DNA from: Escherichia coli
GTDB taxonomy: Bacteria > Pseudomonadota > Gammaproteobacteria > Enterobacterales > Enterobacteriaceae
Strand: one strand, 5' to 3'
NCBI RefSeq assembly: GCF_003334305.1
Contig: NZ_QOWS01000011.1
DNA: 64,000 bases
Shown: piece after piece, positions 2,759 through 53,567 of the stretch
Layout: every line of letters starts with the position of its first letter
Position numbering within the stretch: position 1 is the first letter of the stretch
Notes under the pieces: generated by a model
Told to the model about the DNA's origin: nothing
Databases searched by the model: none
What the model saw: the letters and a program-made list of their open reading frames with translations, nothing else
Made by a program: the position numbers and the translations under genes

Positions 2759-2834
2759 TGGCTCCTCTGACTGGACTCGAACCAGTGACATACGGATTAA
2801 CAGTCCGCCGTTCTACCGACTGAACTACAGAGGA
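2759..2834 (-). tRNA. asnT: tRNA-Asn (GUU)
   Basis: Exact match to remembered E. coli tRNA-Asn, 76 nt with CCA end; identified as asnT by the flanking mtfA. Confidence 0.95.
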
Positions 2835-3825: not shown

Positions 3826-3915
3826 GGAGAGATGCCGGAGCGGCTGAACGGACCGGTCTCGAAAACCGGAGTAGGGGCAACTCTACCGGGGGTTCAAATC
3901 CCCCTCTCTCCGCCA
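3826..3915 (+). tRNA. serU: tRNA-Ser (CGA)
   Basis: 90-nt match to remembered E. coli tRNA-Ser with long variable arm and CCA end. Confidence 0.95.
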
Positions 3916-10775: not shown

Positions 10776-11283
10776 AGTGTATTCCTTATTGTTGCTTAGT
10801 TAGGGTAGTCACTATATTTGCGACTGAGCTGGTCGCTATTTTTAACCAGGCTGGAAAATTGAGTCAATATATCGAAAGCGGTAGTCGGCGGGTGTAAGTA
10901 TGTAATGATGATGCTGCACTGGTGTTGAATATTATTCACGCCAAATTTTCCTTATTGAGTAACGTCGTCGCAAGTGGCCTCAATGATTTTAGACCATTAT
11001 CAGAGGTACGGGGTGGCGGGGAGAGATTTAGTGCTGTGGAATATTGTGGTGCTGATGAATATTTATATCGCGGATTGGTAGAGAAAAAGCTTATTTCATG
11101 CACTATTTTTGCAAATATTTCTATATGGGAAGCGTGTTTGTTACGGATTAATTCATAAAGAAATGCATTTGGGTGTTAGCTTGAAGAGTAGCTGGTTGAT
11201 GTTATTGTGCCAGGAGGGGCAGGGTAAGGTGCTGTATCGATATGCTTCGGCAATTGCGTGTGCCGCAGATGGAGATGAAATGC

Positions 11284-11323
11284 CAATAAAAAAGCCTGAG
11301 TTCGATGAGGGACGAACTCAGGC
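11284..11323 (-). terminator. Intrinsic terminator downstream of the porin gene
   Basis: 11-bp stem GCCTGAGTTCG/CGAACTCAGGC followed by a U-run on the minus strand. Confidence 0.7.
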
Positions 11324-11366
11324 TAGTGTTAAGTTTTACAGTAACACGCCGCAGCGAGTTGGCTGA

Positions 11367-12482
11367 TTAGAACTGGTAGACGATACCAACTGCAAACTGG
11401 TCATCAGCTGCTGCGCCAGTAATGGCGGCGTCATCTTTATCCAGCATGTTGAATTTGTATGCAGTATAAACGTTCATGTTCTTATTAAAGTAGTACCAGG
11501 TACCAACTTCAATGTAGTTCACACGGTCAGCGTCAACATATCTATGTCCAGGTACCCCTTTGATATCTTTACCTTTAGAGTACACATAACCTAAGGACGG
11601 ACGCAGACCAAAGTCGAATTGATACTGAACAACCGCTTCAAAGTTCTGGGTTTCATTGATAAGTTGATCACGCATTATTGTATTGCCTTCTCGATCGGCA
11701 ACACCTGTATCAATAGAACCCGGAGTCATATTACGAGTTTCGCCGTACATTACAGCTGCGTAGACATTGTTCGCGTCATACTTTGCAGCCAATGACCACA
11801 GTTCAGCATTTGAACCGTTTCCATCGGCAACTTGATCGTTGGTGCGATCAGATTTGCTATATGCACCAACGATACCAAAACCATTGATGTTATAGTCTAC
11901 AGACAACGCATAGCCGTCACCATTTTGTTTCTTAGTGCTACGGTTGCTGTTTTTGCCTTGGTACTGAATCGCAAAATCAAGACCATCAACCAGGCCAAAG
12001 AAATCATAGTTACGGTAGGTTGCAACACCGTTGGTACGACCATTCATGAAGTTGTCAGCGGAAGCCCAGGAATCGCCACCCCATTCAACTAACATATCGG
12101 TATAAGCTGCGGCATCATAAGCAACACCGTAGTTACGGCCATAGTCAAATGATCCTAACTCGTTATATTTCAAACCGGCGAAGGTTAAACGGGTTTTTTC
12201 CTGGTTTTCACCTTCGGGCTTGCTGGCGTCGAGGTTGTATTCAAACTGACCAAAACCAGTCAGTTCGCTGGTGATTTGGGTTTCACCTTTAACACCGAAA
12301 CGAGCATAGGAGGTATCTTCGTTTTCGCTGTTATTATCATCAGTATTTGACCAGATGCGTTCGCCAACCATCTTGCCGTAGAAATCAACTTTATTGCCAT
12401 CTTTATTATAAATTTCAGCCGCATTTGCTGCGCCAGCAACTAATAACGCCGGGACCAGCATTGCCAGAACTTTTCTTTTCAT
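11367..12482 (-). CDS. yedS: Intact OmpC/OmpF-family outer-membrane porin at the yedS position
   Basis: 371-aa frame from [21 protein letters not shown] (signal peptide) to a C-terminal F; classical porin motifs; sits where K-12 has the yedS pseudogene. Confidence 0.85.
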
Positions 12483-12796
12483 TATGTATTCCCTTGTGAT
12501 TATAATCTTCATGAATATATCAATAAGTGCCGTTATCCAAAAAAAAGCACATTTGGATACTATTCTATGAAGTTCATTTTATTTTAAGGATTACATGTAA
12601 CAAATGTATTTAAAAGATTTCAAAGTGTTTCTAATATATTTAATATAATTCAGGATTATGAATTCTGAATATAAACATTCATGAAGATTATAAATGTATA
12701 TCAATAAGTTATGAGTTGAACTGAAAGATAGGGAGTATCAATGATCGTTGCGCTAAACGGCTGGTGTGATCACGCGCACATTAATGAAGGCATAAA

Positions 12797-12826
12797 AAAA
12801 AGCCGGCATCATGCCGGCCCAAAAAA
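12797..12826 (-). terminator. Strong intrinsic terminator on the minus strand in the porin-yedR spacer
   Basis: GC-rich hairpin GCCGGCATCATGCCGGC followed by eight U on the minus strand. Confidence 0.7.
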
Positions 12827-12886
12827 TATAAACAAGACGATAAAAGGCTAATAACGGAGGCATCATGACACAGAATAATAAAAAGG
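12797..12886 (-). ncRNA. rseX: Candidate small RNA (about 90 nt) ending at the terminator; position consistent with RseX
   Basis: Possible sigma70 promoter (TTCAAT, 18-nt spacer, TACAAT) about 90 nt upstream of the terminator on the minus strand; RseX placed between yedR and yedS from memory; 5' end not established. Confidence 0.4.
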
Positions 12887-13030
12887 TATAATTGTAATCA
12901 GTGCTAATATATTGATTGAATGAATTAATAAAGCCGATATCAAAGATAAATAAAATCGCTCAAAACGATTTTTCTTGTATTCACTGCCGTTGCGCAAAAA
13001 TTATCTATTTGTTCAAAAAATGATTGAGTC

Positions 13031-13414
13031 TTGACTGGCTCATTCAATGTGGAAAAATGTGATTTTTATCACATAATAGTACTAAGTCTGAATTTTCCGG
13101 GTTATCTCAAAATGGAATACGGTTCGACAAAGATGGAAGAGAGACTCTCTCGCAGCCCTGGTGGCAAACTGGCTTTGTGGGCTTTCTATACATGGTGTGG
13201 CTATTTCGTCTGGGCAATGGCGCGTTACATCTGGGTGATGAGCCGGATCCCCGATGCCCCCGTGTCGGGATTTGAAAGCGATTTAGGCTCTACCGCGGGA
13301 AAGTGGTTAGGGGCACTGGTCGGATTTTTATTTATGGCTCTGGTCGGGGCATTGTTAGGCAGCATTGCCTGGTACACCCGACCTCGTCCCGCACGTAGCA
13401 GACGCTATGAATAA
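13031..13414 (+). CDS. yedR: Small inner-membrane protein YedR (start uncertain; alternatives at 13112 or 13133)
   Basis: ORF with two predicted transmembrane helices; the CRP site lies inside the longest ORF, so the true start may be downstream. Confidence 0.6.
   Translation: MTGSFNVEKCDFYHIIVLSLNFPGYLKMEYGSTKMEERLSRSPGGKLALWAFYTWCGYFVWAMARYIWVMSRIPDAPVSGFESDLGSTAGKWLGALVGFLFMALVGALLGSIAWYTRPRPARSRRYE
13058..13073. promoter_or_regulatory. Consensus CRP site (TGTGA-N6-TCACA)
   Basis: TGTGATTTTTATCACA, perfect match to both CRP half-sites. Confidence 0.6.
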
Positions 13415-21219: not shown

Positions 21220-21306
21220 AACACATCAGATTTCCTGGTGTAACGAATTTTTTAAGTGCTTCTTGCTTAAGCAAGTTTCATCCCGACCCCCTCAGGGTCG
21301 GGATTT
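21220..21306 (+). ncRNA. dsrA: DsrA small regulatory RNA
   Basis: 87-nt match to remembered DsrA, including the terminal CCCGACCCCCTCAGGGTCGGG hairpin and U-tract. Confidence 0.95.
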
Positions 21307-53264: not shown

Positions 53265-53340
<76 letters not shown>

Positions 53341-53394
53341 GTTTAAAAGACATCGGCGTCAAGCGGATGTCTGGCTGAAAGGCCTGAAGAATTT

Positions 53395-53468
53395 GGCGCG
53401 TTAACAAAGCGGTTATGTAGCGGATTGCAAATCCGTCTAGTCCGGTTCGACTCCGGAACGCGCCTCCA
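53395..53468 (+). tRNA. cysT: tRNA-Cys (GCA)
   Basis: 74-nt match to remembered tRNA-Cys. Confidence 0.95.
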
Positions 53469-53480
53469 CTTTCTTCCCGA

Positions 53481-53567
53481 GCCCGGATGGTGGAATCGGT
53501 AGACACAAGGGATTTAAAATCCCTCGGCGTTCGCGCTGTGCGGGTTCAAGTCCCGCTCCGGGTACCA
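53481..53567 (+). tRNA. leuZ: tRNA-Leu (UAA)
   Basis: 87-nt match to remembered tRNA-Leu with long variable arm. Confidence 0.95.

Follow-up and report, generated by a model that had tools for sequence, protein, structure and literature searches.

RseX and Comparable Small RNAs

MicC and MicF are short, Hfq-dependent small RNAs (sRNAs) that are encoded beside a porin gene, and each represses another porin at the ribosome-binding site. The micC gene lies beside ompN, while the sequence record places micF beside ompC. RseX is similar to both of these sRNAs in that its gene lies beside the porin gene yedS and it represses ompC and ompA, with no notable complementarity to yedS itself. In contrast, RseX has no sequence relationship to MicC and MicF, and these sRNAs belong to different Rfam families. 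Furthermore, micF and micC are transcribed away from their porin neighbors and are well expressed under the control of OmpR and other regulators, whereas rseX runs in the same direction as yedS and is subject to silencing by H-NS. RseX also resembles the sigmaE-dependent sRNAs MicA and RybB, as each of these RNAs lowers abundant OMP mRNAs and relieves envelope stress. The promoter of rseX is sigma70-type, in contrast to the sigmaE promoters of MicA and RybB, and RseX, unlike MicA and RybB, is confined to Escherichia and at least one Citrobacter species. To our knowledge, RseX has no known response to envelope stress, which also sets it apart from MicA and RybB.

The rseX gene was reportedly predicted in 2002 and characterized in 2006, with further studies following in 2021 and 2024. 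According to the account given in PMC8313858, RseX was first predicted computationally and was later isolated as a multicopy suppressor of the essentiality of RseP, and in K-12 its repression of ompA and ompC requires Hfq and involves pairing near their ribosome-binding sites. Overexpression of RseX bypasses the need for RseP and sigmaE activation, and fimB and ihfB are further direct targets of this sRNA (PMC8313858). RseX also represses fepA, for which the 3' 40 nt of the sRNA are enough; this repression depends on the terminator loop and probably involves no direct pairing (PMC11979758). The binding of RseX to Hfq and the Hfq-dependent repression of its targets in K-12 are described in both of these studies, and targets have been validated by compensatory or loop mutations (PMC8313858, PMC11979758). 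The 91-nt RNA adjoins drpB (PMC7648144), and extended protein-occupancy domains have been reported to enclose rseX (PMC11230228). H-NS, with StpA as a back-up, silences the gene, and the native RNA had gone undetected for nearly two decades before this silencing was described (PMC8313858).

Identification of the rseX Gene

The DNA analyzed here (the window) is a 64-kb stretch of Escherichia coli sequence, and its minus strand from 12884 to 12794 is almost certainly the gene for RseX, the known trans-acting, Hfq-dependent small regulatory RNA of Escherichia. The identification draws on three independent lines of sequence evidence, namely the Rfam model, alignment with the K-12 gene b4603, and gene order, and no result speaks against it. 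A scan of the whole window with Rfam 15 returned a match to RF01401 (rseX) at 12884..12795 on the minus strand with a score of 99.0 bits (E = 1.9e-12, model positions 1-94 of 94), compared to a gathering score of 50. In the K-12 MG1655 record, the ncRNA rseX (b4603) occupies 2033649-2033739, with drpB on one side and the yedS pseudogene, which has the same orientation as rseX, on the other. This reference aligns to the minus strand of the window at 12884..12794, rather than to another location or to the opposite strand, with 90 of 91 bases identical. The sole difference inside the gene is at RNA position 26, which is C in the window and U/T in K-12, and the rseX region as a whole is 99% identical between K-12 and the minus strand of the window across 201 columns. 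The K-12 gene shares the locus, strand, 91-nt length, -10 element, and terminator of the window copy; the two loci differ in the base at position 26, in the -35 element (TTTAAT in K-12, TTCAAT in the window), and in the state of yedS, which is intact only in the window. The C26 copy of RseX in the window would be expected to act like the K-12 copy.

The arrangement of genes around rseX is also shared. The order hprS, hchA, porin, rseX, drpB, yedJ, dcm, vsr is common to the window and K-12. E. coli strain A7 and the window likewise have the order hchA, porin, (rseX), drpB, yedJ, dcm, vsr, with rseX divergent from drpB, and a 1.1-kb stretch around rseX, which is 100% identical in A7, occurs in 4911 of the 5426 complete E. 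coli genomes. The nearest gene upstream of rseX is drpB (yedR) on the plus strand, and consequently no minus-strand gene runs into the rseX terminator. Downstream, the porin start at 12482 is 312 nt past the 3' end of the RNA. These results bear out much of a first-pass annotation of the window, which had described an orphan terminator about 300 nt from the porin start with no minus-strand gene feeding into it, had predicted an RNA of ~90 nt, and had proposed RseX or an RseX-like sRNA from the position of the K-12 gene between yedR and yedS on the yedS strand. That annotation had delimited the feature at 12797-12893; the hairpin and the RNA it described are real, but the RNA ends at 12794 rather than 12797 and the promoter reaches 12920. 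The coordinates are collected in Table 1.

The proposal of RseX was right, and the feature is an ordinary one: by sequence comparison, rseX is an already known sRNA gene that is here one base off the K-12 reference, and as a discovery it carries little weight. The terminator seemed to be an orphan because the RefSeq records examined, with the exception of K-12, do not annotate rseX. Among the matches listed, the RefSeq annotation under the rseX match is "none" in all but one, where it is a hypothetical protein, and the A7 record has flanking protein genes only. The practical point is therefore one of annotation, as a well-formed promoter-terminator unit seems orphan to readers of those RefSeq records.

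Candidate coding sequences at the locus were considered and rejected. A small protein within RseX would begin at an AUG at RNA position 19, where no stop codon closes the frame before the RNA ends and no Shine-Dalgarno sequence is present, and this AUG is not kept in Citrobacter (AUU). A 44-amino acid open reading frame on the minus strand (12863..12997) has a TTG start, overlaps the rseX promoter, and is annotated in one RefSeq record among those listed.

Table 1. Features of the rseX locus and its flanking genes in window coordinates.
Feature	Position	Strand	Details
rseX gene, 91-nt RseX RNA	12794..12884	-	+1 = 12884 (T), 3' end = 12794; RF01401 and b4603
PrseX -35, TTCAAT	12915..12920	-	3/6 consensus matches; 18-nt spacer; TTTAAT in K-12
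PrseX -10, TACAAT	12891..12896	-	5/6 matches; 6 nt before +1; identical in K-12
Possible internal extended -10, TGTCATGAT	12862..12870	-	Read from sequence; ends 6 nt before G30 (12855)
Conserved single-stranded or weakly structured RseX core	12835..12873	-	RNA positions 12-50; Escherichia and C. amalonaticus alignments
rseX intrinsic terminator	12794..12820	-	Stem-loop GGGCCGGCA-UGA-UGCCGGCUU (12820..12800), overlapping U8 at 12801..12794
Candidate sigma70-like promoter, ATGACA, 16 nt, TATAAT	12865..12892	+	11/12 matches
Promoter-like TTGACT, 16 nt, AAAAAT (upstream TG)	13031..13058	+	
Promoter-like TGGAAA, 16 nt, CATAAT	13050..13077	+	
drpB	13112..13414	+	Experimentally supported start ATG-22 at 13112; A7 PGAP start 21 nt later, at 13133
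yedS, porin gene	11367..12482	-	Intact, 372 codons, here and in A7; pseudogene in K-12
yedS terminator hairpin	about 11290-11325		

Promoter and 5' End of RseX

The promoter and terminator elements of rseX are present and are correctly spaced for a predicted primary transcript of ~91 nt. The promoter described in the initial reading (TTCAAT, 18 nt, TACAAT) was recovered at 12920..12915 and 12896..12891, 6 nt from +1. It is missing from the list of sites returned by a consensus scan because its -35 element matches the consensus at 3/6 positions only. The -10 element varies in other lineages, where TTCAAT, TAAAAT, TACCAT, and TACGAT are found.

The 5' end of RseX has also been probed experimentally. 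As described in PMC8313858, a sigma70-type promoter and a primary transcript are supported by 5' RACE, and the 91-nt 5' end obtained by this method came from a plasmid. In hns mutants, RseX is detected as bands of about 91 nt and about 75 nt (PMC8313858). A re-analysis of dRNA-seq data lists an rseX start site at K-12 position 2033678, which corresponds to RNA position 30 and window position 12855 (PMC7967276 Table S1). Published reports of the native 5' end of RseX disagree, giving lengths of 91 nt and about 75 nt and a start 29 nt downstream. A possible source of the downstream start is the internal extended -10 motif TGTCATGAT, which would start a shorter RseX at G30. The resulting 62-nt form would drop positions 24-29 and retain the invariant segment 30-50 together with the terminator.

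Taken with the published work, these elements suggest a mechanism for the expression and action of RseX. The weak sigma70 promoter would start minus-strand transcription at 12884, and the GC-rich hairpin and U8 tract would stop it at 12794 to give a 91-nt primary transcript. RseX would then bind Hfq and repress ompA and ompC near their ribosome-binding sites, as well as fimB and ihfB, and would act on fepA via the terminator loop. In normal K-12 cells, H-NS (with StpA as a back-up) coats the AT-rich spacer and silences rseX, so that RseX is hardly detectable in the wild type.

Terminator and RNA Fold

On the minus strand of the window, GGGCCGGCATGATGCCGGC (12820..12802) leads directly into a run of eight T (12801..12794; the plus strand at 12790-12820 is gcataaaaaaaagccggcatcatgccggccc), in agreement with the GC-rich hairpin and eight U that had drawn attention to the locus. 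In the terminator scan, this site has 9 pairs, including 6 G-C pairs, with a 3-nt loop and a T-run, and it is the sole terminator-like site in 12300-13300. The pattern alone is within chance, as 1 site was found compared to a shuffle mean of 0.8 for a 1-kb region, and consequently the significance of the feature rests on homology (Rfam score and K-12 identity). The terminator is the dominant structure in both the MFE and centroid folds, and the fold of the whole 90-nt RNA is no more stable than that of shuffles (z = -1.29). Across 10 homologues compared with RNAalifold, the terminator stem is invariant save for one compensatory change at the stem base in Citrobacter (G-C to A-U), and there is no covariation support for the 5' hairpin of the Rfam rseX model. 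Since the fold is not significant and only one compensatory pair is observed, structure alone would not identify RseX. The RNA in the window also contains a U-rich linker in addition to the U-tailed terminator, and both of these elements are typical of Hfq-class sRNAs.

Conservation and Distribution of rseX

Of 5426 complete E. coli genomes, 4880 have a single copy of rseX, among them 241 with the identical 91-nt allele, and about 10% lack the gene. Two of the roughly 4880 matches fall on plasmids, and a small number of genomes contain the gene twice. In at least one genome, rseX has been lost via an IS1-associated deletion that also removed the porin gene and part of hchA. In published comparative work, rseX is counted as variable, and S. 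dysenteriae, S. flexneri, and E. coli HS are listed as having lost it secondarily (PMC3318445).

A single pattern scan across 100,044 species-representative genomes extended the conserved core beyond typical E. coli to E. albertii, E. whittamii, two further Escherichia species, a divergent E. coli, and Citrobacter amalonaticus. All of these homologues score above the Rfam threshold (71-95 bits), and Citrobacter keeps the order yedJ, drpB, rseX, porin. Within the core, RNA positions 12-23 and 30-50 (CUGUGUCAUGAU ... CGUUAUUAGCCUUUUAUCGUC) are almost invariant. The intervening positions 24-29 (GCCUCC here, window 12861..12856), which resemble an anti-Shine-Dalgarno sequence, are hypervariable among Escherichia and Citrobacter. 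The promoter region and the downstream DNA diverge in the same alignments. As the RNA core is invariant and its flanks diverge, selection appears to act on the primary sequence of RseX and not on its structure, which points to selection for pairing or for Hfq binding.

Target Pairing and Silencing

The pairing potential of RseX was evaluated with 24-nt sliding windows of the sRNA against positions -35..+20 of each target, using the ompA and ompC sequences from K-12. These windows replaced a comparison of full-length RseX with long 5' UTRs, in which the predicted duplexes (80-120 nt) were unrealistic and did not outperform shuffles. The best predicted duplex with ompA has an energy of -19.3 kcal/mol (RNA positions 19-40, target -23..-4), a value equaled by 3% of shuffled sRNAs. 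The duplex predicted with ompC has the same energy (RNA positions 20-43) and is equaled by 5% of shuffled sRNAs. Complementarity to the ompA and ompC initiation regions thus appears to be retained, with marginal statistical support. RseX showed no sign of pairing with the leader of the neighboring yedS gene, where the best energy of -11.4 kcal/mol was equaled by 68% of shuffles. Positions 24-29, which contribute to the best duplexes predicted with both ompA and ompC, are the least conserved part of RseX across the species aligned. This hypervariable segment immediately precedes the start at position 30 listed from dRNA-seq.

The base composition of the locus was also considered with respect to silencing. 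The spacer that contains rseX has a GC content of 27-33%, compared to 44-56% in the flanking genes, and this AT-rich composition fits H-NS binding as well as the published placement of rseX within protein-occupancy domains.

Alternative Explanations

The prospect that the hairpin is a mere insulating terminator, which shields yedS from stray upstream transcription, or that the RNA is a non-functional relic is very slight. A relic would be a short transcript with no regulatory role at native levels, made from a spacer that is AT-rich, horizontally acquired, and silenced by H-NS. Published work lends this idea some plausibility, as wild-type K-12 has no detectable RseX across many conditions and every known effect of this RNA comes from overexpression (PMC8313858). 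In addition, the locus came up in two multicopy screens, but the active suppressor was not RseX in either (PMC7648144; PMC11709261). The loss of the gene in several lineages (PMC3318445), including by the IS1-associated deletion, and its absence from about a tenth of complete E. coli genomes are in keeping with the same idea. A relic would not be expected to show the pattern of conservation described above, however, in which positions 12-23 and 30-50 stay the same across the species from E. coli to C. amalonaticus and the promoter-proximal and downstream DNA diverges. This pattern indicates selection on the RNA sequence that extends beyond the hairpin alone, and the validation of specific targets with compensatory or loop mutations also argues against a relic.

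Less probable still, to the point of being nearly negligible, is that RseX represents an attenuated 5' leader of yedS, such that transcripts from PrseX stop at the hairpin and are read through upon a signal. Such a leader would account for the position of yedS on the same strand 312 nt downstream and for the conserved linkage of rseX and the porin gene in Escherichia and Citrobacter. It would be difficult to reconcile with a strong terminator of 9 pairs and eight U, with the MFE and centroid structures, neither of which contains an alternative anti-terminator fold, or with the separate promoter-like sites between the terminator and yedS (12669..12576). In K-12, rseX is intact though yedS is a pseudogene, and RseX acts in trans when it is expressed alone (PMC8313858, PMC11979758). 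Identification of the locus as the gene for a trans-acting sRNA is consequently preferred over both alternatives.

Plus-Strand Promoter-Like Site and drpB

The initial reading had also placed a plus-strand promoter over rseX and suggested that it may drive yedR. The overlap is confirmed, but in a different register: the best arrangement is ATGACA, 16 nt, TATAAT, as the TGACAC originally named would have a 15-nt spacer. This is the only site with at least 11/12 matches on either strand of the window, and about 5.7% of shuffles of the AT-rich spacer yield a site of this quality. Its -10 element overlaps that of PrseX by 2 bp in a back-to-back arrangement, and its -35 element lies inside rseX, where it corresponds to the invariant TGTCAT of the RNA core. 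The site is conserved in Escherichia and not in Citrobacter.

The proposed role of this site in the transcription of drpB is not supported by published data. The published start sites of yedR/drpB are K-12 positions 2033449 and 2033469, which correspond to window positions 13084 and 13064, and the same table has no start near 12899, the position predicted for the plus-strand promoter (PMC7967276 Table S1). The mapped starts are about 165-185 bp further downstream and coincide with the two weaker scan sites listed in Table 1. Similarly, the drpB promoter has been assigned to the interval from the former GTG-1 codon (13049) to ATG-22, the actual start codon (PMC7648144).

Possible interpretations of the plus-strand site include a promoter under silencing, competition with PrseX, and a chance occurrence in AT-rich DNA, and that it is a real promoter is doubtful. 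If active, it would sterically compete with the weak PrseX for RNA polymerase, and such competition, alongside H-NS, would help to explain the near-absence of RseX expression. Under de-repression, drpB-yedJ-dcm-vsr would then gain a long alternative 5' leader. It is likewise improbable, as a separate proposal, that RseX and intact YedS constitute a porin-swap module, in which RseX would remove OmpC and OmpA while yedS, which is unmatched by RseX, is expressed.

Other Features of the Window

Inspection of the 590-bp spacer between hchA and yedS (10850..11300) revealed no obvious repeat or gene, and the GC skew of its plus strand is strongly positive (up to +0.45). The window contains five tRNA genes, specifically Asn(GTT) at 2759..2834 (-), Ser(CGA) at 3826..3915 (+), and a Gly(GCC)-Cys(GCA)-Leu(TAA) cluster at 53265..53567 (+). 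The gene for the sRNA DsrA is located at 21220..21306 (+), where the full-length match to RF00014 scores 102.5 bits, and its position relative to rseX is collinear with K-12.
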